Of a stretch of 55,852 bases of DNA, positions 3,085-30,500 are shown in pieces. Below the pieces are notes generated by a model. That model was not told where the DNA came from and made no database searches. It worked only from the letters and a program-made list of their open reading frames with translations. The stretch lies in contig CALXVA010000003.1 of the NCBI GenBank assembly GCA_944391835.1, forward strand, positions 1-55,852, read 5' to 3'. The stretch comes from an uncultured Clostridia bacterium. Lineage in GTDB: Bacteria > Bacillota > Clostridia > TANB77 > CAG-508. Position 1 is the stretch's first letter; the number at the start of each line of letters is the position of its first letter. Position numbers and translations under genes: made by a program.

Positions 3085-5481
3085 ATGCAAGATTTAATAG
3101 AAGGATTAAACGATAAACAAAAGGAAGCAGTGCTTGCCACAGAAGGACCTTGCTTAGTAATTGCAGGAGCAGGAAGTGGAAAAACAAAGGTATTAACACA
3201 TAAAATTGCATATTTAATGAGTGAAAAACACATAAAACCTTGGAATATTTTAGCAATTACATTTACCAATAAAGCAGCAAACGAAATGAAAGAAAGAGTA
3301 GAGGGGCTTGTTGGAGAAGCAGCAAAAGATATGTGGATTGGAACATTCCACTCAATTTGTGTGCGTATTTTAAGAAAATACATTGATAGACTAGGCTTTG
3401 ACCACACATTTTTAATTTTTGATACATCAGATCAAAAAACACTTATTAAAGAGTGTATGAAAACTTTAAAAGTGGATGACAAAATGTTTACGGATAGAAG
3501 CGTTTTAGCCGAAATTAGCAATGGAAAAAACGAAATGCTAGAGCCAAAGGCATATCAAACAAAATATGCTGGAGACTATAGAAAAGAAGTAATTGGTAGA
3601 ATATATGAGTTATATCAACATAGACTAAAAGAAAATAATGCAATAGATTTTGATGATATTATAAATTATACAATAAAAATACTTACAAATAATGAGGATG
3701 CATTGGAATATTATACAAATAAATTCCAATATGTTTTGGTAGATGAGTACCAAGACACAAATAAAGCACAATTTACATTAGTTACTATTTTAGCATCAAA
3801 ATATGGAAACATAACAGTTGTGGGGGATAACGACCAAGGAATATACAGCTTTAGAGGTGCAGATATTTCTAATATTTTAAATTTTGAAAAAGACTTCCCA
3901 GGAACTAAAATTGTAAAATTGGAGCAAAACTACAGATGTACAGGAAATATTTTAAAAGCAGCAAATGCAGTAATTAAGCATAATGAAAACAAATACGAGA
4001 AAAAACTATGGACTGAGAATGATGAGGGTGCTTTACCTGTAATCCATAAAGCAGATGATGAATATGACGAGGGAAGATTTATAGTAGAGGAAATCAATCA
4101 CTTAAGAAGAGAAGAATATTTTAAATATTCAGATTTTTCAATTTTATACAGGATGAACTCTCAATCAAGAGCAATAGAGGAAATTCTAAGAAGAGAAGGA
4201 ATTCCATACAAAATAGTTGGTGGACTAAAATTCTATGAAAGAAAAGAAATTAAAGATATTATCTCATATTTAAGATTAATATATAATTTTTCTGATAATA
4301 TATCTCTAAAAAGAGTAATAAATGAGCCTAAAAGAGGAATTGGAAAAACAAGTATAGATAATATACAAGAAATATCAGAAAAAACTGGACTTTCTATGTT
4401 TGATATTATAAAGCATGCAGATGAATACGGTTTAAATAGAGTAAAAGCAAATGCAGATGAATTCATTCAAACAATAGAATATTTAAGAAGCAAAATGGAA
4501 GAACTTAGCATATCTGAACTTATAAAAGAAACCTTAAACAAAACAGGATACACTAAAGCATTAGAGTTAGAAAATACAACAGAGGCAGAAACAAGAATAG
4601 AAAACTTGGAAGAGTTCTTAACAGTTGCTATAGAGTTTGAGGAAGAAGAGGCAGAGAACACTTTAGGAGATTTCCTAGAAGGAATTACCTTAAGTAGTGA
4701 TATCGACGGAATGGAAGACTCAGAAGACTCTGTAACTCTTATGACATTACATAGTGCGAAAGGGCTAGAATTCCCAGTTGTATTCTTAGTTGGATTGGAA
4801 GAGGGAATTTTCCCAGGAAATAAATCAATAGGAGAGCCAAAAGAATTAGAAGAGGAAAGACGTTTATTCTATGTAGGAATAACTAGAGCAAAACAATATT
4901 TATATTTAACCTGCGCTAAAAAGAGAACTATATTTGGTTCTACAAGCTATAACCAAATTTCAAGATTTATAAACGAAATCCCATCAGATTTATTAGACGG
5001 ATACGATACACTTGACAACTCAAAAGCAGATGAATTTGGAGATAGTGGCTATAAATGGGAATATGGAAATAGTTCAAAGGTAAATACATATAAAATAGGT
5101 AGCGACTTTTATTATGGCAATAATAACATTGGAGTTGCAGCTAAAGGTTTTGGTACAAGTAGTAGCGGAAAAACTAATGGAGAATTTAACAGCAGTTTTG
5201 GAAGAAATGCAGGCGCAGGTTTCCACAATTCTGGAACAAATACTGGCTTCCAATTTAAAACTGCAGAAAACTTTTTAAATTCATTGAATAGCAAAAAGGT
5301 AAATACAGAGGCAGACATTTCTAAATATAAAGAAGGACAACGTATCTATCATAAAAAATTTGGAGAAGGAATAATTAACAAAATCGAAGAAGAGGGAGAA
5401 GATTATAAACTAGATATATCTTTCGATAAAGCCGGACATAAAAGATTAATGGCAAAATTTGCAAATTTAGAGATTATATAA
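3085..5481 (+). CDS. pcrA: ATP-dependent DNA helicase PcrA/UvrD
   Basis: AGAGSGKT Walker A, TFTNKAA, VDEYQD, QNYR, TLHSAKGLEF, EERRLFYVGITRA, C-terminal Tudor-like HKKFGEG. Confidence 0.97.
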   Translation: MQDLIEGLNDKQKEAVLATEGPCLVIAGAGSGKTKVLTHKIAYLMSEKHIKPWNILAITFTNKAANEMKERVEGLVGEAAKDMWIGTFHSICVRILRKYIDRLGFDHTFLIFDTSDQKTLIKECMKTLKVDDKMFTDRSVLAEISNGKNEMLEPKAYQTKYAGDYRKEVIGRIYELYQHRLKENNAIDFDDIINYTIKILTNNEDALEYYTNKFQYVLVDEYQDTNKAQFTLVTILASKYGNITVVGDNDQGIYSFRGADISNILNFEKDFPGTKIVKLEQNYRCTGNILKAANAVIKHNENKYEKKLWTENDEGALPVIHKADDEYDEGRFIVEEINHLRREEYFKYSDFSILYRMNSQSRAIEEILRREGIPYKIVGGLKFYERKEIKDIISYLRLIYNFSDNISLKRVINEPKRGIGKTSIDNIQEISEKTGLSMFDIIKHADEYGLNRVKANADEFIQTIEYLRSKMEELSISELIKETLNKTGYTKALELENTTEAETRIENLEEFLTVAIEFEEEEAENTLGDFLEGITLSSDIDGMEDSEDSVTLMTLHSAKGLEFPVVFLVGLEEGIFPGNKSIGEPKELEEERRLFYVGITRAKQYLYLTCAKKRTIFGSTSYNQISRFINEIPSDLLDGYDTLDNSKADEFGDSGYKWEYGNSSKVNTYKIGSDFYYGNNNIGVAAKGFGTSSSGKTNGEFNSSFGRNAGAGFHNSGTNTGFQFKTAENFLNSLNSKKVNTEADISKYKEGQRIYHKKFGEGIINKIEEEGEDYKLDISFDKAGHKRLMAKFANLEII

Positions 5482-5536
5482 AAACAAACCGTGGACAAAA
5501 GGGACTACTGCCTTTTGTCCACGGTTTGTTTTTATA
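5477..5536. terminator. Perfect 26-bp stem hairpin containing REP-like copy 1
   Basis: TATAAAAACAAACCGTGGACAAAAGG-GACTACTG-CCTTTTGTCCACGGTTTGTTTTTATA at the pcrA stop. Confidence 0.85.
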
Positions 5537-5579
5537 AATACTTATGAGAAAAGGAAGAATGTAATAAAAGTCACAAAAA

Positions 5580-5596
5580 TGTAATGAAAATGTAAT
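5580..5596 (+). promoter_or_regulatory. WalR/OmpR-type direct repeat upstream of the sortase locus
   Basis: TGTAAT-GAAAA-TGTAAT matches the TGTWAH-N5-TGTWAH consensus. Confidence 0.5.
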
Positions 5597-5724
5597 AAAT
5601 CTACCTTTACTGACATTCCGTAATAGAAAAGGTTACAAAATGGCGAAAAGGGAAAATGTTACCATTGACTTCATATAAGAAAAGAGTGAAAATAAAATGA
5701 GAGTTAAAATAATAGGAGGATTAT

Positions 5725-6915
5725 ATGAATAATAAATTTCTTGCTAAGTCTATAGGTATTGTTATTATTATTTTGTTTTTATTTTTCCCAATAAGAATTT
5801 TGGCAACTGATAGTATACCTAATCAAGGCTTGAATGATTTAACAAATGAAATGCCTAGTGAATTGCTCAATGAAATATTAGACGATGCAGTAGATGATAC
5901 AGCAGACGGTGAAGTAGACGATACAACAGATGATACATTAGATGAAAATAATAATAAAAAATTAGCAATACTATCTAAAACAACAACAGAAGAAGAAAAC
6001 GAAAAAATAGAATATATGATTTATGTAAGAGACTATATAGACAAAAACTTTAAATTTGCATTTTCAAACATGGAAAATGCAGAAGAAGCAGATTTAGTAT
6101 ATATTAATTCAGTTTTGGATTCTGAAGGAAACAAATTAGCATATCTTGATTGGGAAACATATGAATCATTAACTAATTTAGGACAAGAAATATATATTTG
6201 GATTAAAGATGAAGCCGAAAACATGATTATGGAAGGAGAATTATTGGATTTAAATAATTCACTAGATAATGAAGAAATTGCTTCTATAGAATTAATAACT
6301 AAAAGAATTTCTGTAGAAATTGGAGATACAAAAGAAAAAGTAGATGCAACAGAACCTATTAGACAAGAAGAAGTAGATGATGTAGATGAAATTGCAAAAG
6401 TAGGATATATCAAAATTACAGATAATGAATCAGCAACATATTATTATCAAATAGCAAAAGTATCTGATTCGGAAGATTACAATAATCTAATGCAATACAC
6501 AGAGAAAATGACAAATGAATACAATGAACTAAATATTTTTGATAAAGTACAGTTTTGCGAAGAATTTTATAAAATATATTCAGAATTAATAGAAAGAGCT
6601 GAGTGGCAAGAAGTTGAGAATATGACAATATATCAACCAGAGTCATCAGTAGCAGGTGACCAATATATAGTATTTATAAGAAAAATTGACGGAGAAAATG
6701 AAATAGTAGATGCTCAATTTTTAACAGCTTATGATGATTATAAAGAAAATATAATAACAGAGGATGTAGTAGTGGAAGAAATAGTTAAATTACCTATTAC
6801 AGCTGATAGTATTATATTATTTGTGCTTTTAGGGATTATAGTAATTGCACTAATTGTCGTTTATGTAATAATAAAAAAAATAACAAAAAAGGAAAATAGA
6901 AAAGAAGAAAGGTAA
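5725..6915 (+). CDS. Acidic secreted protein with C-terminal LPxTA (LPITA) sorting signal; putative sortase substrate
   Basis: N-terminal signal peptide. C-terminus KLPITADS + hydrophobic TM + basic tail KKITKKENRK. Ends 1 bp before a sortase gene. Confidence 0.8.
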   Translation: MNNKFLAKSIGIVIIILFLFFPIRILATDSIPNQGLNDLTNEMPSELLNEILDDAVDDTADGEVDDTTDDTLDENNNKKLAILSKTTTEEENEKIEYMIYVRDYIDKNFKFAFSNMENAEEADLVYINSVLDSEGNKLAYLDWETYESLTNLGQEIYIWIKDEAENMIMEGELLDLNNSLDNEEIASIELITKRISVEIGDTKEKVDATEPIRQEEVDDVDEIAKVGYIKITDNESATYYYQIAKVSDSEDYNNLMQYTEKMTNEYNELNIFDKVQFCEEFYKIYSELIERAEWQEVENMTIYQPESSVAGDQYIVFIRKIDGENEIVDAQFLTAYDDYKENIITEDVVVEEIVKLPITADSIILFVLLGIIVIALIVVYVIIKKITKKENRKEER

Positions 6916-6916
6916 T

Positions 6917-7579
6917 ATGAAATTAAAAATTTGTAAAATTATTTTTATTATATTATTAATAGCTGCGATTATAGTGTTAGGACTTATTATATTTAAATAT
7001 GGTCGTAACCAAATAAATGAAAAAGAAACTCAAGAAATAGTAGATGCTTTTAGAAACATTGATTTCCCAAATACAGTTGCAGAAAATGAAATAAACCAAA
7101 ATGGCATAGTAGAAGGAGAAATTACTAATACAGAAAAAGCAATGCCATTAGAATATAAAGGATACAAAGTAATTGGAATTGTGAATATAGATAAAATTGG
7201 AATAGAATATCCAATATTAGAAATAGAGAATATAGATCCAGAAACTGCAAAGGTTCCATTACAGTATTCAATAATAAAATATTGGGGGAATGACGTAAAT
7301 GATTATGGAAACTTATCGATTGCAGGGCATAACTATATAGATGGAACAATGTTTGGAAAAATTAAAAAGTTAGAAATAGGAGATATTATAGAACTAACAG
7401 ACTTAACAGGAAAAACAGTACAGTATTCAGTTTATGATATTTTTTCTACAGAACCAAATGATGTATCTATTTTGCTTCCTGAAGAGGAAAATTCAAGGGA
7501 AGTTACATTAATTACATGTACAAATGGAAATAAAAAAAGATTAATTGTTAAAGCAAGGGAAATTAGTAACATACAGTAG
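6917..7579 (+). CDS. Sortase (class D-like), copy 1
   Basis: N-terminal TM; catalytic His (IAGHN), Cys (TLITC), Arg (KRLIV). Confidence 0.92.
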   Translation: MKLKICKIIFIILLIAAIIVLGLIIFKYGRNQINEKETQEIVDAFRNIDFPNTVAENEINQNGIVEGEITNTEKAMPLEYKGYKVIGIVNIDKIGIEYPILEIENIDPETAKVPLQYSIIKYWGNDVNDYGNLSIAGHNYIDGTMFGKIKKLEIGDIIELTDLTGKTVQYSVYDIFSTEPNDVSILLPEEENSREVTLITCTNGNKKRLIVKAREISNIQ

Positions 7580-7642
7580 ATGAAATGGTTTTTTATGGTT
7601 AGCTTACAAAAAAGGTGAGTAATAAAATTATGGAGGGAGAAG

Positions 7643-10600
7643 ATGAAGATAGAAAATACTTTAAAAAAATTACTATTTATATTAATATTAATATTTTCAA
7701 TTTTATTACTTGTGCCAAAATCAGTTATAGGAATTACTGAAGATAACCTACGAGAAAGCAATATAAATGGATATAGAGAAGCAGTAGTAGAAAGAGTTGA
7801 AAAGGTGGAAAAGCTAGTTTCAAGAGAGTATTGGGATTGGTGGACGTGGGTAGACACAACATCTGTATCGAACTCTGCAACATTAACTAATATAAGTGTG
7901 CAAAAGCCTAATATAGAGGTTCAAAAATCTGTAATTACCACAACAGGAAGCAATAATTTAGTCTATGCTGGAGAAGAGGTTACATACGAAATTAATATAA
8001 CCAATAATGGAACAAGAACAGAAGAAAACATAGAAGTAATAGACCAAATACCACAAAATACAACATTTGTATCTATAAATGACGAAAACACAGCAGAAGA
8101 GATACTAGATGAAAATAATAATGTTATTGGAATAAAGTGGCATGTTACAGTAGAACCAGAAGAAACAGTAACAGTTTCATTTACAGTAAGAGTAAATGAA
8201 AACGTAGAGGGAACAATAACCAATACAGCAATGGTAAATGGAAAAGAAAGTAATGAAACACACACAGCAATTATACAAAATGAGAAGTCAAGTGTTATAA
8301 CAAGAAATGGCGAAGAAGTAAAAATAGCCAAAGTAGGAGATCAAGTTACATATACAATTACAGCAATAAACACAGGAGATGTTGCTGGGGCAATTTCAGT
8401 ACAAGACGCAATCCCAGAAGGTACAATATTAGTATCAGCCGAAGGAGCAACAATATCAGAGAATAATAAAACTCTAACGTGGGAGAATGTAAATGTACCA
8501 GCAGGAGGAAGTGCATCTGTAGAATTTATAGTAGAGGTTGAAAAAATAGATGGAGAAATAACCAACACAGCAATAGTTGGAGGCAAGGAAACAGAAGAAA
8601 ATAAAGTTCCAACAGCAGAAATAGAAATAACAAAAGAAGTAACAGATATAACAAGAGACGGAGCAAGCGTGGGAAAAGATGTAGAGGTTACAGAAGGAGA
8701 TATAATAGAATATACAATAACTGTAACTAACAAAGGAAGTGTAGAACTAACTAACATAGTTATAGAAGAAGAACTAGCAGGAATAGAAATTGAAACAGGA
8801 AGTTTAAACATAGCAAGCCTTCCAGCAGGAACACAACAAGTAATAACAGCAACATATACAGTAACATATGAAAATGACATACAAAATAAAACAGAAAAAG
8901 AAATATATAACAAAGTAATAGTTACAGGAGAATATATAGCAGACCCAGAAAATCCAAACGAAATAGATACAGTGGAAGACGAAGATGAAGTAAGTACAAC
9001 AGTTGAAGAAATGCAAAGAGTAAGTGTAACAAAAGGTGCAAACAAAAACGAAAATGTAAAAGTAGGAGAAACAATAAGGTACACAATAAGAGTGCAAAAC
9101 ATAGGAAATGTAAGCTTACAAAATATAGAAGTAGAAGACATAATAACAACATCAGCAGGAACATTTAATATAACGGTATATAGCGATATAGACTGTACAA
9201 TAGAAACAACACGAATATCAAGACTAAGAGTAGGAGAAACAGCAACATTATATGCAAAATATACAGTAACACAAGAAGATATAGACACACAAACAGCAAT
9301 AAGCAATATAGCAACGGCAAAACCAGAGAAAGCAGAAGAACCAACACCAAGCGAGCCAGTAGAAACAACTACAGAGGTAACAGTGCCAGCTATAGACATA
9401 AGCAAAACAGCAACAGCAATAAAGAAAAATGGTGAAATAGGATTTACTCAAAACATAGATAGAGTAAGACCAGGAGATGTAATAGAATATACAATAATCA
9501 TAAGAAATACAGGAAATGTTACACTAAACAACATTATAGTAACAGATTCGCTAAAGGTAACAGTAAACGGAGACGAAAAAGAAGTAGATAACGCAACTGG
9601 AGTTTCAACCATAGCAACAATAAATAGTTTAGCACCATATACAGAGCCAGTAACAATAACAGCTTTGTACACTGTAACAGAAGCAGACACAGCAAACCTA
9701 GATAGAATTCGTAATACAGCAATAGCAATAGCGGAAGATGGAACCACAGATAGAGATGATAACGAAACAGTATCAGTAAACAGAGACACAAGTGTAACAG
9801 TAAATAAAATATGGGTGGATAATAACGACCAAGATGGAAAAAGACCAGACACAATAACAATAAACCTATATGCAGATGGAGAACAAATACAAACACAAAC
9901 AATTACAGGAACAACCTATACATTTACTAAGTTACCAACATATAATGAAGCCGGAAATGTAATAACATATACAGTAACAGAAAATGCTATTCAAGAATAT
10001 ACAACTACATATAGTGAGGATACATTTACAATAACAAATACACACATACCAGAAACCACAAGTGTAACAGTAAGAAAAACTTGGGATGACAACAATGACC
10101 AAGATAGAATGAGACCAGATTCGGTAAGTGTAAGTTTAAGCAACGGAGTAACAGCAGTAAATACACAAACCTTATCAAATGCTAATAACTGGACATATAC
10201 ATTTACAAACTTGCCAAAGTATTCTAATGGAACACTAATACCATATACAGTAGTAGAAAATAATGTGCCAGAGGGATATACGGCAGAAGTAACAGGAAGC
10301 ATAGAAACAGGATTTACAATAACAAATGCACATACACCAAACTTAATTAACATATCTGTTACAAAGGTTTGGGAAGATAGCAACAACCATTATGGAGCTA
10401 GAACTCCAATAGAAGTTACTCTAAATGCAAATGGAGCAGTAAACCAAACAGTAACAATAACCGAAGCAGACAATTGGCAACATACATTTGAAAGAGTGCC
10501 AGAATACGAAAATGGAGTGAAAATAAACTATACAATAACAGAAACACCAGTAGAAGGCTACCAAACAACAATAACAGGAGACGTAGAAACAGGATTTACA

Positions 10601-11878
10601 ATTACAAATAAATACAACAATATAACAGTAAATAAAATGACATTGGTAGATTCCGAAACAACACAAAGAGAAGTAGGACTTGACGTAGTATTTGTGCTAG
10701 ATATTTCAGGAAGTATGAGAAAAGATAGTATTGAAGGTATGCCTAAACTAATACCGATGGTGGATGCAGCAAATGAAGCTATAACAGAGATTATGAAAGA
10801 TTACAATAATCGAGTTGGAATAGTATTGTTTAGTACTGAAGCTACAACATTATTACCTTTAAATAGATATACACCAGAATCAACAGTTAATGGTGTTGGG
10901 CAATATTTAGAGGAGGAAATAACAGGTACAGATATAAGTGATGCACTTTATTATATTAATACTAATGTAAAAGAAACGTATAGAAGAAGTGTTGAAGTTA
11001 TTGGAGAAACATGTATTCAACTAGGATTATCTACAGGAGCAAACATCTTGTTAGATGAGACAGACACAGAAAAACGTCAGCCAGTAATGATACTATTAAC
11101 AGATGGATATCCATCGTATTCTACCACTAATTACACAAACGTAACAAATACGAATATTAGCAATGGATACGAAACTGGAGCACAGGGATACTTAACAATA
11201 TTATCAGCAAACTATTATAAGAACAAGATAACAGAACATTATCAAGATGCAGAGACCAAAATGTATACAATTGGATTAGGCAATTTGGGTACTTTTGGAA
11301 AGGTATTATTAAATCCAACTGAAGAAAATTTAAATGAATGTTTAGGGTCAGACCTACAATACGAGTTAGACTTATATGATTATTTAACTGGAGAAAAAAC
11401 AACAGTAGAAGATTCACTAACAGGGGAATTTACAGAAATAGTAAGTCCTTATGGAGATTATAGTTATGCAGATGGCTCATTTGTTGAAGAGATGACATCC
11501 GAAGAATTAAGTGATGTTTTCTCTGGAATAATTGAAGAGATTAATAAAGTGTATGAAACAACTACAGTAGAAACCTCAAATATAAATATGGATGTATATA
11601 GAATAGAATTTGAAAACTTGGATACTAATGAGAATATTACCATTGTTTTAGATAATCAATCACAAGAATACACATTACAAGAGCTATTAGCCTCATCAAC
11701 TGTAATTCAAGAAAATGGAAGATATTATATGGACTTAAAATCAGCTATGTTTACTAATGTGTATGTAATAGACATAACATATTATAAGACGGAAAGTACA
11801 GTGGGAACACTAACAAGTAGTTCGCTATTTAGCCCAATACCTTTATTAGGTGAAATTAGAAATTACATGGGAAAATAA
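7643..11878 (+). CDS. Large fibrillar adhesin 1: signal/TM, DUF11-type Ig repeats, three CnaB repeats, C-terminal vWA; no LPxTG anchor
   Basis: Repeated 'G(D/E).I.YTITV.N.G' DUF11 signatures; CnaB 'VTV.K.W.D...RP...YTF..LP.Y...YTVTE'; vWA MIDAS 'VVFVLDISGSM' and 'ILLTDG'. Ends PIPLLGEIRNYMGK with no TM. Confidence 0.85.
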   Translation: MKIENTLKKLLFILILIFSILLLVPKSVIGITEDNLRESNINGYREAVVERVEKVEKLVSREYWDWWTWVDTTSVSNSATLTNISVQKPNIEVQKSVITTTGSNNLVYAGEEVTYEINITNNGTRTEENIEVIDQIPQNTTFVSINDENTAEEILDENNNVIGIKWHVTVEPEETVTVSFTVRVNENVEGTITNTAMVNGKESNETHTAIIQNEKSSVITRNGEEVKIAKVGDQVTYTITAINTGDVAGAISVQDAIPEGTILVSAEGATISENNKTLTWENVNVPAGGSASVEFIVEVEKIDGEITNTAIVGGKETEENKVPTAEIEITKEVTDITRDGASVGKDVEVTEGDIIEYTITVTNKGSVELTNIVIEEELAGIEIETGSLNIASLPAGTQQVITATYTVTYENDIQNKTEKEIYNKVIVTGEYIADPENPNEIDTVEDEDEVSTTVEEMQRVSVTKGANKNENVKVGETIRYTIRVQNIGNVSLQNIEVEDIITTSAGTFNITVYSDIDCTIETTRISRLRVGETATLYAKYTVTQEDIDTQTAISNIATAKPEKAEEPTPSEPVETTTEVTVPAIDISKTATAIKKNGEIGFTQNIDRVRPGDVIEYTIIIRNTGNVTLNNIIVTDSLKVTVNGDEKEVDNATGVSTIATINSLAPYTEPVTITALYTVTEADTANLDRIRNTAIAIAEDGTTDRDDNETVSVNRDTSVTVNKIWVDNNDQDGKRPDTITINLYADGEQIQTQTITGTTYTFTKLPTYNEAGNVITYTVTENAIQEYTTTYSEDTFTITNTHIPETTSVTVRKTWDDNNDQDRMRPDSVSVSLSNGVTAVNTQTLSNANNWTYTFTNLPKYSNGTLIPYTVVENNVPEGYTAEVTGSIETGFTITNAHTPNLINISVTKVWEDSNNHYGARTPIEVTLNANGAVNQTVTITEADNWQHTFERVPEYENGVKINYTITETPVEGYQTTITGDVETGFTITNKYNNITVNKMTLVDSETTQREVGLDVVFVLDISGSMRKDSIEGMPKLIPMVDAANEAITEIMKDYNNRVGIVLFSTEATTLLPLNRYTPESTVNGVGQYLEEEITGTDISDALYYINTNVKETYRRSVEVIGETCIQLGLSTGANILLDETDTEKRQPVMILLTDGYPSYSTTNYTNVTNTNISNGYETGAQGYLTILSANYYKNKITEHYQDAETKMYTIGLGNLGTFGKVLLNPTEENLNECLGSDLQYELDLYDYLTGEKTTVEDSLTGEFTEIVSPYGDYSYADGSFVEEMTSEELSDVFSGIIEEINKVYETTTVETSNINMDVYRIEFENLDTNENITIVLDNQSQEYTLQELLASSTVIQENGRYYMDLKSAMFTNVYVIDITYYKTESTVGTLTSSSLFSPIPLLGEIRNYMGK

Positions 11879-11915
11879 AAGCAAAGCTTATAAAAATATA
11901 TAGGATACTAAAAAG

Positions 11916-12593
11916 ATGAAAACAAATAATTTAAAATTGAAAATATACAAAATAATTTTTGTAGTGTTACTAATAATTGCAATAATTATAATAGGTTTAA
12001 TAATATATAAATATGGCCGTAATCAAATAAATGAAAAAGAAACTCAAGAGATAGTAAATGCCTTTAGAAATATAATTGTATCAAATGCTGATGAAGAAAA
12101 CGCGCAAAATATAGAGAATACTGTAAATAAAAATCAAGATGAAAATCAAGAACAAACTAAAAAACAGCTAGAATATAAAGGGTATAAGGTAATAGGCATT
12201 GTAAAAATTGATAAAATAAACATAGAATATCCAATACTAGAAATTGGAGATATTGACCCAGAAAATGCAAAAACACCAATGCAATATTCTATAATAAAAT
12301 ATTGGGGAGAAAATGTAAACGATTATGGAAATTTATCTATAGCAGGGCATAACTATATAGATGGAACCATGTTTGGAAAAACAAAATACCTAGAAATTGG
12401 AGACATTGTTGAGCTAACAGATTTAACAGGAAGAACAATACAATACTCAATATATAATATTTTTGTAACAGAACCAAATGATGTGTCAATTTTGTTGCCA
12501 GACGATGAGCAAGAAAGAGAAGTAACTCTAATTATTTGCTCAAATGGAAACAAAAATAGACTAATAATAAAAGCAAAGGAAGTAGAAAATTAA
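11916..12593 (+). CDS. Sortase (class D-like), copy 2
   Basis: Paralog of 6917..7579; IAGHN, TLIIC, NRLII. Confidence 0.92.
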   Translation: MKTNNLKLKIYKIIFVVLLIIAIIIIGLIIYKYGRNQINEKETQEIVNAFRNIIVSNADEENAQNIENTVNKNQDENQEQTKKQLEYKGYKVIGIVKIDKINIEYPILEIGDIDPENAKTPMQYSIIKYWGENVNDYGNLSIAGHNYIDGTMFGKTKYLEIGDIVELTDLTGRTIQYSIYNIFVTEPNDVSILLPDDEQEREVTLIICSNGNKNRLIIKAKEVEN

Positions 12594-12708
12594 AGAAATA
12601 TTAGAAAGTAAATAGAACATTTAGTAGAAATAATACTTATAAAAAATGAATACTACAGAAGAATTACAGATGTCAGTAGTAAAAAAGTTAAAGGGGGAGG
12701 AAAATAGA

Positions 12709-15700
12709 ATGGACAATACACCAAAAATGGCGAAAAAGCAAAAAATGTTAAAACATAATGTAAAAAAAGTAGTAGCTATTTTAATACTAGCCTTAATAAC
12801 TTTATTGCTTACGCCTAAATCATCAATAGGAACCTCCTTAAATGCAGTTGGAGAAACCACAGTAACAAGAGTAGAAGAGCAGGAAAAACTGGTATCAATG
12901 GCATATTGGGACTGGTGGACACCTTTAAACAATATAAGCACACCAACACTAACAAACATAAGCGTAGAAGAAACGAACCTAGATATAAACAAAACTGTAA
13001 CAACCGAAACAGGAAGCAACAATTTAGTTTATGCCGGTGAAGAAATTGTATACGAAATAGCCATAACAAATAATGGAACAAGAACAGAAGAAAACATAGA
13101 AGTAATAGACCAAATACCAGAAAATACAACATTTGTATCTGTAAATGACGAAAACACGGCAGAAGAAATACTAGATGAAAACAATAATGTTATAGGAATT
13201 AAGTGGCAAGTTACAGTAGAACCAGAAGAGACAGTAACCGTTTCATTTACAGTAAGAGTAAATGAAAACGTAGAAGGCACAATAACAAATACAGCATTAG
13301 TAAATGGAGAAGAAAGTAATGAGACTCACACAGCAATAATAAAAAATGAGAAAACAAGTACAATAATGAGAAATGGCGAAGGAGTAAAAGTTGCAAAAGT
13401 AGGAGACCAAATTATATATACAATTACAGCAATAAATACAGGAGATGTTGCTGGGGAGATTTCAATAGAAGATGCTATACCAGAGGAAACAACATTAGTA
13501 TCTGCCGAAGGAGCAACAGTATCGGAGAATAATAGAACTCTAACTTGGAATAATGTAAATGTACCAGCAGGCGAGAGAGCATCTGTACAATTTACAGTAG
13601 AGGTTGAAGAAATAGATGGAGAAATAACCAACACAGCTATAGTTGGAGGAAAAGAAACAGAAGAAAATAGAATTCCAACAGCAGAAATAGAAATAACAAA
13701 AGAAGTAACAGACATAACAAGAGAGGGAGCAAGCATTGGAATAGATGCAGAAGTTACAGAAGGAGATATAATAGAATATACAATAACTGTAACTAACAAA
13801 GGAAGTGTAGAGCTAACAAATGTAGTAATAGATGAGCAACTAGAAGGAATAGAAATAGAAACAGGAAGTCTAAACATAGCAAGCTTGCCAGCAGGAGCAC
13901 AACAAGAAATAATAGCAACATATACAGTAACATATCAAAAAGACATACAAAATAAAACAGAAAGAGAAATATATAATAAAGTAGTAGTAACAGGAGAATA
14001 TATAGCAGACCCAGAAAACCAAGACGAAATAGATACAGTAGAAGATGAAGACGAAGTAAGTATACCAGTTGCAGATGTGCAAAGGTTAAGTGTAGTAAAA
14101 AGTGCAAATAAAACAGAAGGAGTAAAAGTAGGAGAAACAGTAAGGTACACCATAAGAGTACGAAATATAGGAAACGTAAGCTTGCAAAATATAGCAGTCG
14201 CAGATGTAATAACAACATCAGCAGGAACATTTAATATAACAATATATAGCGACATAGACTGTACAATAGAAACAACACAAATAGCAAGACTAAGAGTAGG
14301 AGAAACAGTAACATTATATGCAAAATATACAGTAACACAAGAGGATATAGACACTCAAACAACAATAAGCAATATAGCTACAGCAAAGCCAGAGGGAGCA
14401 GAAGAGCCAACACCAAGTGAACCAGAGGAAGTAACCACAGAGGCAACGGCACCAGCAATAGATATAAGCAAAACAGCAACAGCCATAAAGAAAAATGGTG
14501 AAATAGGGTTTACGCAAAATATAGATAGAGTAAGACCAGGAGATGTAATAGAATATACAATAACAATAACTAACACAGGAAATGTAACATTAACAAACAT
14601 AATGGTAACAGATTCGTTACAAGTAACAGTAAATGGAGACGAAAAAGAAGTAGATAACACAACTGGAGTTTCAACAATAGCAACAATAGATAGCCTAGCG
14701 CCATATTCAGAGCCAGTAACGATAACAGCTTTGTATACTGTAACAGAAGCAGACACAGCAAACCTAGATAGAATCCATAACACAGCAATAGCAACTGCAG
14801 AAGATGGAACCACAGATAAAGATGAGGATGAAACTATATTAGTAAATAGAGATACTTCTGTAACTGTAAATAAAATTTGGGTAGATAATAATAATCAAGA
14901 TGGAAAAAGACCAGAAACAATAACCATAAATTTATTTGCAGATGGGGAACAAATAAAAACGCAATCAATTACAGGAACAACATATACATTTGAAAAACTA
15001 CCAACATATAGTGATACTGGGAATGTAATAATATATACAGTAACAGAAAATGCAGTAGCAGAATACACAACTACATATAGTGCAGATACATTTACAATAA
15101 CAAACACTCACACACCAGAAACTACAAGTGTAACAGTAAGTAAAGTTTGGGATGATAACAATGACCAAGATAAAATGAGACCAGCTTCAGTAAGTATAAG
15201 TTTAATAAATGGCACAGACATAGTAAATACGCAAACTTTATCAACCGATAATAATTGGAACTATACATTTGCAAACTTACCAAAATATTCTAATGGAGAA
15301 ATAATACCATATACAGTAGTTGAAAATAATGTGCCAGAAGGGTATAAAGCAGAGGTAACAGGAAACAAAGAAGCAGGCTTTACAATAACCAACTCACACA
15401 CTCCAAATTTAATAAACATTTCTGTTACAAAAGTATGGGAAGACAATAACAATTATTATAATGTTAGAACGCCAATAGAAGTTACATTGAATGCAAATGG
15501 AATAGCAAAGCAAACAGTAACCATAACAGAAGCAGAGAATTGGAAATATACATTTGAAAGAGTGCCAGAATATGAAAATGGGGAAAAAATAAGCTATACA
15601 GTTACAGAAAAAGAAATAGAAAGATATCAAACGTCGATAACAGGAAATTCAGAAACAGGTTTTACAATTACAAATAAATACAACAATGTAACAGTAAACA

Positions 15701-16932
15701 AAATGACATTAGAAGAAACAGAAACTTCTGAAAGAGAAGTGGGACTTGATGTGGTATTTGTACTAGATATTTCTGGAAGTATGAGATTTGAAAGTAATGA
15801 AGGCATACCAAAAGTAATATCAATGGTAAATGCAGTCAATAAAGCTATAACAGAGATTATGAAAGATAGAAATAATAAAGTAGGAGTAGTATTATTTACT
15901 ACTGATGCTACAGTACTATTACCACTAAATGTATATACAGCAAGAACAACCTCTAGTGGAATAGGACAATATATACAATATACAACGCATGAAGATGCTG
16001 ACGGACATGACTTGTATTTTATAAATGCAAATGTAACAGGAATGGCACAAAACACCACTGAAGTTACGGGAGACGAAAGTATGCAGATAGGGCTAGCAAA
16101 AGGTGCAGATATGTTATTACAACAAGAAGATACCAAAAATCGTCAACCTATAACTATAATATTATCTGATGGTGTACCATGGTATTCAACTACAGAGTAT
16201 GATAATGTAACAAGTGACAACTGTACTGAAATATATCAAGACTTTGCAATAAACAACTATTTAACAATATTGACTGCAAATTATTATAAAAATAGAGTGG
16301 CTGAACATTACAAAGATGCAGAAGCACTAATGTATACAATAGGATATAATTTAACAACATTAACGGCACAAATATTATTAAATCCAAGTAAGGAAAATGT
16401 AAATGCTTGCTTAAACTCAGATGAGGCAGAAGCAATAACATTGTATAATTATCTAACTGGAAATGAATATATAATAAATGGAAAGGTAGTGCGAAATCCA
16501 TATACAGACTACAATTATGCCGATGGTGCATATATTGGAGAAATGACTTCAGAGGAATTAGATGAAATTTTTGCTGGAATAATTGAAGAGATTAATAAAG
16601 TATATGAAACTACAACAACACAAACCTCAAGCATAAATATGGACATATCTAAAGTAGAACTAGAAAACCTAGATGTTAATGAAAACATTACAATTATTAT
16701 AGATGATGAAGAAAAAGAATATACAATAGATGAGCTATTAACAACATCTACTGTAATTCAAGAAAATGGAAAATACTATATGGACTTAAAAGCCAATATG
16801 TTTACTAACAAATACGTAATAGATATAACATATTATGAAATTCCAGAAAGTACAAGACGAGCTTTAACAGGCTATTCATTATTAAGCCAGATACCACTAT
16901 TAGGTGAATTGAGAGAATATATGGGAAAATAA
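12709..16932 (+). CDS. Large fibrillar adhesin 2, paralog of adhesin 1
   Basis: Same domain order; DISGSM MIDAS; ends QIPLLGELREYMGK. Start placed at ATG 12709 behind GGGGGAGG. Confidence 0.85.
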   Translation: MDNTPKMAKKQKMLKHNVKKVVAILILALITLLLTPKSSIGTSLNAVGETTVTRVEEQEKLVSMAYWDWWTPLNNISTPTLTNISVEETNLDINKTVTTETGSNNLVYAGEEIVYEIAITNNGTRTEENIEVIDQIPENTTFVSVNDENTAEEILDENNNVIGIKWQVTVEPEETVTVSFTVRVNENVEGTITNTALVNGEESNETHTAIIKNEKTSTIMRNGEGVKVAKVGDQIIYTITAINTGDVAGEISIEDAIPEETTLVSAEGATVSENNRTLTWNNVNVPAGERASVQFTVEVEEIDGEITNTAIVGGKETEENRIPTAEIEITKEVTDITREGASIGIDAEVTEGDIIEYTITVTNKGSVELTNVVIDEQLEGIEIETGSLNIASLPAGAQQEIIATYTVTYQKDIQNKTEREIYNKVVVTGEYIADPENQDEIDTVEDEDEVSIPVADVQRLSVVKSANKTEGVKVGETVRYTIRVRNIGNVSLQNIAVADVITTSAGTFNITIYSDIDCTIETTQIARLRVGETVTLYAKYTVTQEDIDTQTTISNIATAKPEGAEEPTPSEPEEVTTEATAPAIDISKTATAIKKNGEIGFTQNIDRVRPGDVIEYTITITNTGNVTLTNIMVTDSLQVTVNGDEKEVDNTTGVSTIATIDSLAPYSEPVTITALYTVTEADTANLDRIHNTAIATAEDGTTDKDEDETILVNRDTSVTVNKIWVDNNNQDGKRPETITINLFADGEQIKTQSITGTTYTFEKLPTYSDTGNVIIYTVTENAVAEYTTTYSADTFTITNTHTPETTSVTVSKVWDDNNDQDKMRPASVSISLINGTDIVNTQTLSTDNNWNYTFANLPKYSNGEIIPYTVVENNVPEGYKAEVTGNKEAGFTITNSHTPNLINISVTKVWEDNNNYYNVRTPIEVTLNANGIAKQTVTITEAENWKYTFERVPEYENGEKISYTVTEKEIERYQTSITGNSETGFTITNKYNNVTVNKMTLEETETSEREVGLDVVFVLDISGSMRFESNEGIPKVISMVNAVNKAITEIMKDRNNKVGVVLFTTDATVLLPLNVYTARTTSSGIGQYIQYTTHEDADGHDLYFINANVTGMAQNTTEVTGDESMQIGLAKGADMLLQQEDTKNRQPITIILSDGVPWYSTTEYDNVTSDNCTEIYQDFAINNYLTILTANYYKNRVAEHYKDAEALMYTIGYNLTTLTAQILLNPSKENVNACLNSDEAEAITLYNYLTGNEYIINGKVVRNPYTDYNYADGAYIGEMTSEELDEIFAGIIEEINKVYETTTTQTSSINMDISKVELENLDVNENITIIIDDEEKEYTIDELLTTSTVIQENGKYYMDLKANMFTNKYVIDITYYEIPESTRRALTGYSLLSQIPLLGELREYMGK

Positions 16933-16933
16933 T

Positions 16934-17012
16934 ATTTGCAAAAGGGGACGGGCTTAAATTGTAAAAGAGTTAACATAATTTTTACAATTTAAGCCCGTCC
17001 CCTTTTGCAAAT
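16934..17012. terminator. Perfect 33-bp stem hairpin, terminator / REP-related
   Basis: ATTTGCAAAAGGGGACGGGCTTAAATTGTAAAA-13 nt-TTTTACAATTTAAGCCCGTCCCCTTTTGCAAAT followed by a T-run. Confidence 0.85.
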
Positions 17013-17018
17013 TTTTTT

Positions 17019-27478: not shown

Positions 27479-27511
27479 ATATTATATGTTAAGAAATAAA
27501 TGGAGGTTATT

Positions 27512-30500
27512 ATGAGTAAACTATTTGAAAAAACTATTGCACTAATCATGGTCATAATCTTAATGAGTGCTAACCTATTAATTATAGGTGAGTTTACTAT
27601 AGCGCGTGCATTAAGTGATGAAGAGTTAAATGAACAAACATCAGAAACAAATCAGAGAAATGTACAATTTAACTCGTATTTTTATGGAGAAACGCATAAT
27701 CAAACTTTTGATATCGGATCAGAAGATGCCAAGATGTATCTAAGAATTGTGGTAAACAATGCTGGATATATTGATAATGGAACAACAATTGAATTTCAAA
27801 ATGCGAACTTCAAGATAAAAGATGGAGTTTCAAATGAAAATATCAAAAGCATAGATACAGAGAGTAACAAAATCGTTTTAAACAAAATTGATAATGGTTC
27901 AGATATTACTTTAGAAATTCCTATTGAAATTTTAAAAGGAGATAACGTATCATTAGATTACTTCTCAAAAGAAGCAACTACTAAACTTTTAGGAACTTAT
28001 GTAGATGGAGAAGGAGAAAGAAGATCTCTTGAAAAAGAAGTAGTTAATAAGCTTTCTTGGAGAGGAACAGCTGAAGCAGAAGTAAGTATAGAAGCTACAA
28101 AATATATACCATACAATATAGAAGAAAGTGCAGTTACAAGTGAAGAAACAGAAGTAAGTACTAACCAAGCTACAGAACCTAATGCTAATGAAAGCACAAC
28201 TCCAGAAATAGGTGTGGATTTAGGAGCAGGAGAAAATGTAGAAGCAAATGCACAAGCTAGCGAGGAAGAAGCTGAGAGTGTGCATGAAAACTATGGAGTA
28301 ATGGTTCAAGTAAAAGTAAATTCAAATGTGAAAGATAGTAACTTACCTATAAAAAATACGATGTTAGAAATAACAGCACCAGAAATAAATAGTAATAAAC
28401 CAACTTCTGTAACTGTTATTGCAAATAAAACAGAAGCAACAAACGGTAAAACAGATGGATTAGAATTTACAAATAGTAATTATTCATATGATATAGAAAC
28501 AGGAAAAGTAACAATAAACACAGCTAACTTACAAGATAGCATTTCATGGAAAAAGAATGTTAAAGATGAATATATAGTTACATATATATTTGAGGGAAAA
28601 GAAATATATGATTATGTAATGCAAAACGGACTAGATTGTACTACAACAGCAGTTGCAAACTTAACATTATATAATAATGAAGAAAGCACAATAACAACAA
28701 ATGCAATTGCAGAAATAAAATATACAGAGCCAACAGGCGAAATGACAGACTTTGACATGAATGCAACTAAAGATTTAAGTAAAGGATATGTATATGCAAA
28801 CTACGAAGCAAGAAACAAACAAGAAACAGAATACTATACAGATTATATAGCAACAATTCATAGTGCTAAACTTACTACATCATTAGAATTTGCACAAGAA
28901 TATGATAAATTCTTAACAGAGGATGAAAGACAAGCGTATACAACAATAGATGACAAAAACTATGCATACAATAAGAGAATAGAAATAAGCCAAGCAATAT
29001 TTAATAAAATTTTAGGTGAAGATGGAGAAATAACAGTAAAATCATCAGATGGAACAGAACTTGGAAAAATAAATAAAGAATCTACATTAGAAGATGGAAT
29101 ATATAGCTTAGACATAAGCGAAAGCAACAACAATAGATTAGTTATAACAACAACAGCACCTATTACAGAGGGAAAATTTGAAATAAGAATAGTTAAAGCA
29201 TTAAAAGGAGAAATAGACTATTCTAGAACTCAAATGCAAAGCTTTAACAAAGTAAGAACTGAATTTGAAGGAAAAACAAATATAGATAGTACAGCAAAAA
29301 CTGTAGACATAGAATTAAAAGAACCAGAAACAAAAGTAGAATTACAAATAAGTAAGCCTAATTTAACAACAGTTTTAACAAATGAAAATGTAGAAATAAG
29401 AGTAATACTCAATACTTCTAGTATATATAACGGATTGTTTAAAAATCCAACATTAAAAATAACATTACCTTCATATATTAGAAGAATTAATTTAAAAGGT
29501 ACAAACATTTTACTAGGAAACGGACTTGAAATTAAAAATGCCGGATTAATAGAAGAAAATGGACACGCAGTTATTATGGTAGAGTTAGAAGGAAATCAAA
29601 CAGAATATGCTATAGATGCAGAATATAAAGGGGCAATAATAGTACTAAATACAGACTTAACTACAGACACACTAACACCAAGTGGAAGTGACAAAATTAC
29701 TTTAGAGTATACAAACGAAAATGAAGTAGCTACAAATACAGAAGGAAGCTTATCGGCAGACATTAATTATGTGGCACCAAGTGGTGTAGTTACAGCAAAT
29801 GGAGTAAGCAATTACAAGGATGGAGAAGAAGATGTTTTATCAATATCTGAAGAGCCAATAACATTACCAATAGACACATACTCAGACGAAAGAACAACTA
29901 CAATAGAAGGAACTGTAATAAACAACTACGAGAATGATATAAGTAATATTTCAATATTAGGAAGAATTCCAGCACAAGGAAACACACAAATAGATACAAA
30001 CAACGAAATGGGTTCAACATTCTCAATGCCACTTGCAACACAAGTAGAACTAAAAGGAGTAGACAGCAAAAATTACACAGTATATTATTCAGACAATGCA
30101 AATGCTAACAAAAATTTACAAGATGCAAGCAATGGTTGGTCAACAACTGCAAGAACAAGTTCAAAATCATACTTAATAGTATTTAACGATGATTACAAAA
30201 TGAAACCTGGCACAAAAATAGACATAAGCTATGATATGGTAATGCCAGAAAACTTAACACCAGACAATGATACATATACGATGTACAAAGTATACTATAC
30301 AAACGATTCTGAAATAGGACAAATGGTAGAAAGCAAAACATCTTCTGTAATTGGTTTTTCTACAGGAGAAGGACCAGAAGCAGAAATAACACTTTCTACA
30401 GCAACAGACACAGTAAGAGGTGGACAAATTGTAGAAATGACAGCTACAATTAAAAATACTGGAGATACAGATATAGAAAATGCAAAACTAAAAGCAATAG

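Follow-up and report, generated by a model that had tools for sequence, protein, structure and literature searches.

A small sorting-signal protein, a private sortase and an N-terminally exported adhesin form a conserved gene module in gut Clostridia: a candidate variant of sortase-dependent surface display

The subject of this work is a five-gene cluster on the plus strand, at 5725-16932, of contig CALXVA010000003.1 (assembly GCA_944391835.1) from an uncultured chicken-gut Clostridia bacterium; the whole stretch of 55,852 nucleotides (nt) that was analysed is referred to as the window. The cluster encodes a small protein with an LPITA sorting signal (P1), followed by two pairs of a sortase and a giant adhesin. 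As judged from related genomes, the real unit is a three-gene module, which comprises P1, a sortase and an adhesin exported by its N-terminus, and this module is confined to one family of small-genome gut Clostridia. Overall, the evidence points to a variant of sortase-dependent surface display, in which the adhesin is perhaps held by its front end. The account that we favour, tentatively and at somewhat less than an even chance, is that P1 is fixed to the cell wall by the sortase and then holds the N-terminal cassette of a separately exported adhesin whose head lies far from the cell.

Five open reading frames (ORFs), all on the plus strand, were delineated across 5725-16932 by ORF listing and translation. 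ORFs, sorting signals and hydropathy were obtained with our own scripts; signal peptides and transmembrane segments were assigned by a Kyte-Doolittle hydropathy script together with reading of the sequences, and signal-peptide cleavage sites were read by eye. The gene order that an earlier note on this DNA had described is borne out by the ORFs, by Pfam and by the motif scan:

5725..6915, plus strand: P1, 396 amino acids (aa), a secreted protein of two FN3-like domains that has a sorting signal at its C-terminus
6917..7579, plus strand: sortase 1, an N-terminal transmembrane segment followed by the catalytic domain (H138/C201/R208)
7643..11878, plus strand: adhesin 1, 1411 aa, with a VWA head and without a sorting signal
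11916..12593, plus strand: sortase 2 (H145/C208/R215)
12646..16932, plus strand: adhesin 2, 1428 aa in the listed frame, with the architecture of adhesin 1 and without a sorting signal

The survey from the adhesin side fetched 80 genome-contig loci with an alignment of the head, and at all 12 of them that hold P1 a sortase and an adhesin lie directly downstream, which gives complete modules at L029, L035, L036, L041, L044, L047, L053, L058, L063, L070, L086 and L108. Every family-type adhesin whose 5' side is on the contig has a sortase upstream of it and a P1 homologue (320-350 aa) upstream of the sortase; the other family-type adhesin loci end 5' at contig ends and are uninformative either way. 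Adhesin homologues that usually occur without a sortase, an outcome that the earlier note had named as fatal to its proposal, were thus not encountered. A metagenome scan with an alignment of 4 closer P1 sequences returned 19 P1 loci, mostly from one lineage, in which a sortase comes next in 17/17 complete P1 genes and an adhesin is present wherever the DNA continues past the sortase (15 loci).

The P1 side yields the same arrangement. The P1 profile is found in 115/401 genomes and 26/50 genera of the window's family, and in an even class-wide draw it is found in 3/399 genomes, all within that family; 10/21 sampled genomes of the window's own genus carry P1. Forty P1 places were fetched, chosen only for having downstream DNA and blind to its content, and one of them (L139) ends right after P1. 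The remaining 39, from 38 genomes (39 counting L139), all have a sortase and an adjacent large ORF that carries the N-terminal cassette and lacks a sorting signal (39/39), although the genomes counted are related to each other and the loci do not represent independent events. In 37 of these loci the sortase gene comes immediately behind P1; in L144 and L163 it follows the adhesin. The large ORF is split by frameshifts or runs of N in four and cut by a contig end in one. The two loci with the order P1, adhesin, sortase belong to genomes (G652 and G682) that each carry three P1 copies on different contigs. P1 identities in the surveyed synteny range down to ~29%. The co-occurrence of the three gene types for which the earlier note had proposed a survey is therefore confirmed at every sampled P1 locus with downstream DNA; its claim that the sortase is tied to the adhesin stands as far as synteny goes, but the link is three-way, since P1 is always included.

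P1 runs from a signal peptide through an acidic insert to LPITA (residues 356-360, nt 6790-6804), a hydrophobic stretch and a basic tail KKITKKENRKEER, and thus bears a canonical cell-wall sorting signal, i.e., an LPxTG-like motif, a hydrophobic segment and a basic tail; it is the one such signal in the module, and the ~50-aa acidic insert after the signal peptide is extra relative to other P1 proteins. Signal statistics were drawn from 126 full-length representatives of 333 P1 clusters among 1.84 billion proteins, of which 117 have an LPxT motif. The residue after Thr in these 117 signals is Y in 50, G in 47, F in 15, A in 2, N in 2 and V in 1, and the second residue after Thr is D in 99 and E in 17. 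The signal of the family is LPxT[Y/G/F][D/E], the acidic residue two places past Thr is its hallmark, and the LPITAD of the window is a rare variant, LPxTA being present in 2/117. The other sortase substrates of the same genome carry LPQTG or IPxTG. In addition, two natural P1-sortase fusions (P0207 and P0212) join the P1 signal and transmembrane segment to a short basic loop, the transmembrane segment of the sortase and its catalytic domain, a topology that is self-consistent. Because of these signal statistics, the natural fusions and the different signals on the other substrates of the genome, P1 is identified as the substrate of the module sortase. Among longer proteins that contain the sortase, one P1-sortase join without the signal and two apparent chimeras were seen, and no sortase-adhesin fusion.

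The model of P1 (predicted local distance difference test, pLDDT, 74) consists of two FN3-like sandwiches with a helical hairpin inserted in the second, and its fold matches are generic FN3 or cytokine-receptor-like only (Foldseek TM score 0.14-0.19; VIA-align Z <= 6.4). A profile search of the PDB gave nothing better than E 0.44, the ESM Atlas returned 'hypothetical protein' clusters only, no NCBIfam family (0) was matched at E <= 0.01, and the single Pfam match lies below its cut-off (22.3 versus 25 bits). P1 was not matched to an NCBIfam family with LPXTA whose name we take to be 'processed acidic surface protein', and that phrase was not found in the literature search.

Both sortases pass the Pfam Sortase family (PF04203, MEROPS C60), at 87.4 and 76.5 bits (cut-off 26.6), and keep the catalytic His, Cys and Arg. 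They fall short of the NCBIfam cut-offs for class C (NF033745; 48.3 and 45.2 bits versus 160), class D (NF033746 and NF058671; 25.9 and 25.2 versus 165, and, for SrtD, 37.8 and 40.5 versus 140) and class E (46 and 40 versus 160), and the module sortases at other loci are likewise under the class D cut-offs. The hint of class D that the earlier note had taken from LPITA is thus not supported by these scores; the P1 of the window does carry an LPxTA signal, which is rare in the P1 family. The best solved relative of sortase 1 is PDB 4d70 (E 3.3e-16), the structure of a Clostridium perfringens sortase, which we take to be of class D. In a maximum-likelihood tree of 41 sortases, those of the module form one clade with support 98/97, in which 16/16 rows are module-linked. 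Sortase 1 and sortase 2 are sisters in this tree and share 72% identity; with a ratio of nonsynonymous to synonymous divergence (omega, dN/dS) of 0.14 at a dS of ~1.3, both copies are under purifying selection.

Each adhesin contains, according to Pfam, 5 DUF11/DUF7507 stretches, 3 Cna_B stretches and one VWA (VWA/VWA_2), followed by ~230 residues without a Pfam family. The parts are laid out as follows:

7643-7732, plus strand: signal peptide of adhesin 1
7739-7873, plus strand: conserved N-cassette motif of adhesin 1
~7913-9787, plus strand: DUF11/DUF7507 stalk of adhesin 1
~9788-10612, plus strand: three Cna_B of adhesin 1
10682-11188, plus strand: VWA head of adhesin 1 (~residues 1014-1182)
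11798-11875, plus strand: low-confidence tail of adhesin 1 (26 aa), which follows a C-terminal beta domain
~15748-16173, plus strand: VWA head of adhesin 2 (~residues 1035-1176)
16852-16929, plus strand: C-terminal tail of adhesin 2 (25-26 aa), of the same kind as in adhesin 1

Pfam and Kyte-Doolittle hydropathy thereby recover what had been claimed for both proteins, i.e., a signal, DUF11 repeats, three CnaB and a vWA domain with neither a sorting signal nor a transmembrane segment at the C-terminus. Each has one hydrophobic segment, which is N-terminal, the last 40 residues peak at ~1.0 over 15 aa, and no sorting-signal pattern was found in adhesin 1 or adhesin 2. The two are 74% identical. 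Judging by where its homologues start, the true beginning of adhesin 2 is probably further in, at Met 22 or Met 28 (nt 12709 or 12727). Both have the build of fibrillar adhesins, with a tandem stalk of DUF11/CLIPPER, DUF7507 and Cna_B domains and a terminal adhesive domain, and the stalk is of isopeptide type by family only, DUF11, DUF7507 and Cna_B being isopeptide-bond families according to the accessible part of PMC12617251. The head carries the metal-ion-dependent adhesion site (MIDAS) motif DISGS, with DxSxS intact, at residue 1020 of adhesin 1 and residue 1041 of adhesin 2, and D31, S33, S35 and D165 are invariant in the VWA head alignment A1. With a pLDDT of 85, the model of the head most resembles PitA, PilB, SpaC and GBS104, although the TM scores are modest (0.3-0.39), the Foldseek matches including PitA 7w6b, SpaC 6m48 and GBS104 3txa (TM score 0.32-0.36); the head sequence has no match in the PDB at E <= 0.01. 

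The inverted domain order, with the VWA towards the C-terminus, is read from the homologues as a real property of the family, because the close ones end alike and the distant LPxTG relatives have an N-terminal VWA. With the head region as query, 77 proteins were retrieved from the database. None of the 36 closest (P0007-P0042) has a sorting signal, and most of them end at a common beta domain (...YYxDL...ITYY), so that truncation of ordinary LPxTG adhesins, the other outcome that would have told against the earlier proposal, did not come about. Among the 41 weaker matches, 32 have an LPxTG-type signal by pattern and several more by eye; the distant relatives at L037, L039, L052 and L089 combine an N-terminal VWA and LPxTG with one or two sortases 1.5-3.5 kb away, a classical pilus-like layout. 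Pfam on 11 further module adhesins places a VWA near the C-terminal end, within the last 40% of the protein, in 6 and finds none in 5.

The feature common to the module adhesins is the N-terminal cassette and not the VWA head. It begins with a basic stretch, ~22 hydrophobic residues and a juxtamembrane stretch, and in most members a 100-150-aa acidic, Thr/Asn-rich linker follows. Past the hydrophobic segment, a small-x-Ala site, identified by reading in 24/24 adhesins from outside the window, looks like a type I signal-peptidase site. A ~45-aa motif (...EYVxExVEE..(E)R/K-L/I-V/I-S-E...W-T/S-P) stands just before the first stalk domain in 20/27 adhesins; the 7/27 without it are L135-L138, L047, L149 and L150, and in the first batch of loci the motif-less adhesins accompany LPVTY-type P1 proteins, through co-variation or shared ancestry. 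In the window adhesins the linker is missing and the signal peptide is of the short canonical kind, with Pro at -6, small residues at -3 and -1 and VIG or SIG ahead of the probable cleavage point; the motif comes almost directly after. Their C-terminal tail (...LT[G/S].SLL..IPLLGE.R.YMGK) is restricted to the nearest relatives of the window, which make up the lineage in which the N-terminal linker was lost; the hydrophobicity of the tail is too low for a transmembrane segment, and it is modelled as a short helix with low confidence. Three candidate signals were set aside: xLT[G/S] of the 25-aa tail as a sortase motif, the second position of which is variable and which occurs in the closest relatives only; VGETT in the N-cassette as a sortase motif, which is not conserved; and a SipW-type signal peptide at the adhesin N-termini, with no NCBIfam match in 3 family adhesins.

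The second sortase-adhesin pair of the window arose with its ribosome-binding region in a tandem duplication:

6904-11878 repeated as 11918-16932, plus strand: duplicated unit of sortase and adhesin, spacing 5014-5069 nt

The duplication of the sortase with the adhesin, on which the earlier note had built its case, is therefore confirmed as a unit, but the argument drawn from it is weak, since the closest relative, G815, has a single set; co-duplication alone is weak evidence for a tie between sortase and adhesin, and the family-wide synteny is strong evidence. In G815, the termini of P1 and sortase 1 look identical to those of the window, and its one adhesin combines the N-terminus of adhesin 1 with a tail like that of adhesin 2. 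An RNA-library contig shows a single chimeric adhesin as in G815, and a contig in another sample likewise joins 10570 to 15637; because of such cases, the second pair can be said to be losable by recombination. Between adhesin 1 and adhesin 2, the stalk has a dS of 0.32 and the head and N-terminus a dS of ~0.8, which suggests homogenisation of the stalk and divergence of the head; the copies differ most in the linker of the sortase (dN 0.46) and at the N-terminus of the adhesin (dN 0.37).

The module also looks strain-variable. On contigs from other samples, joints from 5527 to 16938, between hairpins that flank the cluster, would delete the whole module, which is a hint at most, as their sides measure only 30 and 18 nt. 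The metagenome contigs L110-L125 come from near-identical strains with almost identical P1 and sortase genes and adhesins of 1648 to 2553 aa; the number of stalk repeats changes quickly in this set. In one RNA-library run, contigs match P1, sortase 1 and adhesin 1 exactly, which does not imply transcription, as DNA carry-over is possible; gaps in the cover of the stretch by this run count for nothing.

In the account that we favour, the dedicated sortase would cleave P1 after Thr and fix it to peptidoglycan. The adhesin would be exported separately on its own N-terminal signal and point its head outward, since the N-terminus lies nearest the cell, the reverse of the arrangement in LPxTG adhesins. 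Once bound to the wall, P1 would then serve as a partner on the wall side and hold or brace the N-terminal cassette, and the force-bearing stalk would gain a hold on the wall through P1. The window adhesins should depend most on such a partner, because they have lost the long linker and have an ordinary cleavable signal peptide. A more demanding form, to which we give a low probability, is reverse-polarity display, in which the sortase and P1 fix the adhesin to the wall by its N-cassette, either covalently or by strand-type docking; the covalent forms may consist of a bond from the Thr of P1 to an amine of the adhesin or of a self-forming cross-link between P1 and the cassette. If true, reverse-polarity display would be a sortase system that anchors a protein without its own sorting signal and presents interchangeable heads at a free C-terminus.

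Several observations weigh against a role of P1 in holding the adhesin. The ~22-aa hydrophobic segment and the 100-150-aa polar linker of most family adhesins resemble a self-sufficient membrane anchor with a wall-spanning spacer, so that P1 may be unneeded for retention. Small substrates with their own sortases are common in this genome, and P1 and its sortase could function on their own and do no more than share an operon with the adhesin. The single sortase-adhesin pair of G815, which does without a second sortase, counts on the same side, the generic FN3 fold of P1 gives no functional clue, and no P1-adhesin fusion was found among longer proteins containing P1, which is weak evidence.

The alternative that survives best, unlikely but to be taken seriously, makes the genes independent neighbours: the adhesin would be held solely by an uncleaved N-terminal signal anchor and a polar linker through the wall, and P1 with its sortase would be a separate, co-transcribed wall protein, e.g., a co-adhesin or spacer. 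The anchor-like segment and linker just described suit this well, as do the substrate-sortase pairs on contigs C49 and C40, which have no giant adhesin alongside (C32 has large neighbours), and the absence of sortase 2 from the closest relative. However, synteny at 39/39 loci, a spread over 26 genera and very different heads are hard to explain by co-regulation alone. The window adhesins, with their short canonical signal and no linker, should on this account be released unless otherwise held, and we infer from the isopeptide-type stalk a load-bearing role that a single transmembrane helix would serve poorly.

Direct covalent coupling, the amine-acceptor option of the earlier note, which we regard as unlikely, would let an amine in the N-terminal region of the adhesin, and not peptidoglycan, resolve the acyl intermediate of sortase and P1, to give a P1-adhesin conjugate; the amine would belong to a lysine or be the alpha-amine newly exposed when signal peptidase cuts. 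The strict three-way synteny would be expected from it, the conserved small-x-Ala site would, by reading, expose a free N-terminus, and the module-specific sortase clade goes with an unusual signal, Tyr, Phe or Gly and then Asp or Glu after Thr; both sortases are under purifying selection, and divergence between the copies peaks in the sortase linker and the adhesin N-terminus. The chemistry itself is the difficulty, however, for a P1 signal spent on the adhesin would leave the conjugate without a wall link unless the adhesin signal stays uncleaved. The residues past the putative cleavage site are not conserved, the cassette motif has no conserved lysine (its basic position is R or K), and the sole invariant Lys of alignment A3 stands at the start of the first DUF11-type domain, which is the place of the internal isopeptide Lys according to the available part of PMC12617251. 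The lack of a P1-adhesin fusion, again weak evidence, speaks against coupling as well.

A two-component pilus like bcpA-srtD-bcpB, in which P1 would be the shaft pilin polymerised via a lysine and the VWA protein the associated adhesin, is very unlikely. The gene order of a small LPxT protein, a sortase and a VWA protein mirrors that system as presented in the accessible portion of PMC8225981, the head model is nearest the pilus adhesins PitA, SpaC and GBS104 (TM score 0.32-0.36), and K161 of P1 is invariant in 14 module copies. Across the 126 representatives, however, that position is Lys in 93, Arg in 12, Glu in 8 and Asn in 3, and Lys161 was accordingly rejected as a pilin-like nucleophile. 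Moreover, P1 is FN3-like with no pilin among its generic fold matches, a point that decides little, an adhesin without a sorting signal cannot be placed at a tip by the sortase, and the sortases reach 48 and 45 bits against the class C cut-off of 160. Finally, truncated LPxTG adhesins or mis-assembled ORFs can be practically dismissed, for although these are repeat-rich genes in a metagenome-assembled genome of 140 contigs and relatives at L044, L155, L156, L158 and L160 are split by frameshifts or runs of N, 36/36 close homologues, drawn from many assemblies, have the same ending, the reading frames are unbroken and evolve under purifying selection, and contigs from independent runs match the window. 

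The five-gene cluster is probably one operon, because strong hairpins stand on both sides and a simple scan found no terminator-like site inside 5725-16932:

5477..5536, no strand assigned: left-edge hairpin with perfect 26-nt arms, 3' of the upstream pcrA-like helicase gene
16928..17018, no strand assigned: right-edge hairpin with 39-nt arms and then a T run, directly after the adhesin 2 stop codon

The second of these marks where the module ends on the right and is likely to terminate the operon. The upstream ORF (3085-5481) was named a pcrA-like helicase from reading the translation alone, and the flanks hold chromosomal housekeeping genes, i.e., MecA, RadC, MreBCD, a penicillin-binding protein, MinC and SpoIIE. 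The genome of 1.69 Mb has 11 sortase-domain matches (contigs C8, C11, C12, C14, C24, C32, C40, C49 and C138, and the window); a small LPQTG/IPQTG protein lies beside a sortase on C32, C40 and C49, and the pairing of one small substrate with one private sortase seems habitual in this lineage. Elsewhere in the window, 27500-32656 and 32677-39222 encode two more giant surface proteins of 1718 and 2181 aa with DUF11 and SdrD_B matches, which have a C-terminal hydrophobic segment and basic tail and no LPxTG; one of them carries ...GLVTGAAL... immediately ahead of the hydrophobic segment. According to the labels of runs X1-X20, the stretch is found mainly in gut metagenomes of chicken and other birds, in 13 studies, and one run is labelled as an air metagenome.

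Sortase biology assumes that the displayed protein bears its own C-terminal sorting signal. Taken singly, the sortase, the sorting signal and the VWA fibrillar adhesin of the present module are all of familiar types, and what we could not find described is their combination, in which a signal-less, N-terminally exported adhesin is always accompanied by a small substrate and by a sortase of a private clade; a literature search from which most subscription journals were absent returned no description of the module or of the LPxT[Y/G/F][D/E] signal. The system would be categorically new only if sortase-dependent N-terminal attachment holds, and in that case it would provide a naturally evolved means of displaying proteins whose C-terminus is left free. 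The module probably shapes the gut attachment of these bacteria, because it is common in the family (115/401) and variable between strains. According to the accessible part of PMC8286594, surveys of fibrillar adhesins left many Firmicutes proteins without a known anchor; for anchorless adhesins with a C-terminal head the module is a concrete candidate, with a defined partner (P1), a sortase clade, a signal, an N-cassette and swapped heads.

Among known systems, the VWA pilus tip adhesins RrgA, GBS104, SpaC and PitA are like the module in having a MIDAS-bearing VWA on an isopeptide-type Ig-like stalk with a sortase nearby. However, the head of the module adhesins is C-terminal (VWA at 1014-1182 of 1411 and 1035-1176 of 1428 residues) instead of N-terminal to stalk and anchor; tip adhesins have a C-terminal sorting signal, which neither window adhesin nor any of the 36 closest homologues has; and the module uses export by an N-terminal cassette and an FN3-like partner in place of a pilin. 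The Csc/WxL clusters of Lactobacillales reportedly use a small sortase-anchored LPXTG protein as a wall hold for surface proteins without LPXTG. The module differs from them in that it contains a sortase of its own and just one partner, a giant stalked protein, and no WxL or DUF916 domain was found in the five window proteins (Pfam, E <= 0.01).

The gene order of bcpA-srtD-bcpB in Bacillus cereus, a small LPxT protein, a dedicated sortase and a larger surface protein, is alike as far as the available text of PMC8225981 describes it. BcpB, however, has its own sorting signal and BcpA a YPKN lysine, whereas the large protein of the module is signal-less and the only well-conserved lysine of P1 is not family-wide. 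Class D sortases are described as LPXTA-specific in the same portion of that source, and the likeness to them consists of the LPITA signal of the window and of 4d70 as the best solved relative of sortase 1; in contrast, the module sortases score 26-40 bits against cut-offs of 140-165, and the P1 family signal is LPxT[Y/G/F][D/E]. A parallel in layout, with stalk repeats and an adhesive domain distal to the anchor, is found among the fibrillar adhesins of Monzon et al. 2021 (PMC8286594), the accessible part of which reports a minority of Firmicutes proteins with a C-terminal adhesive domain and no sortase motif as unexplained. The survey names no mechanism or partner genes in that part, whereas the present module has a specific pair of P1 and sortase.

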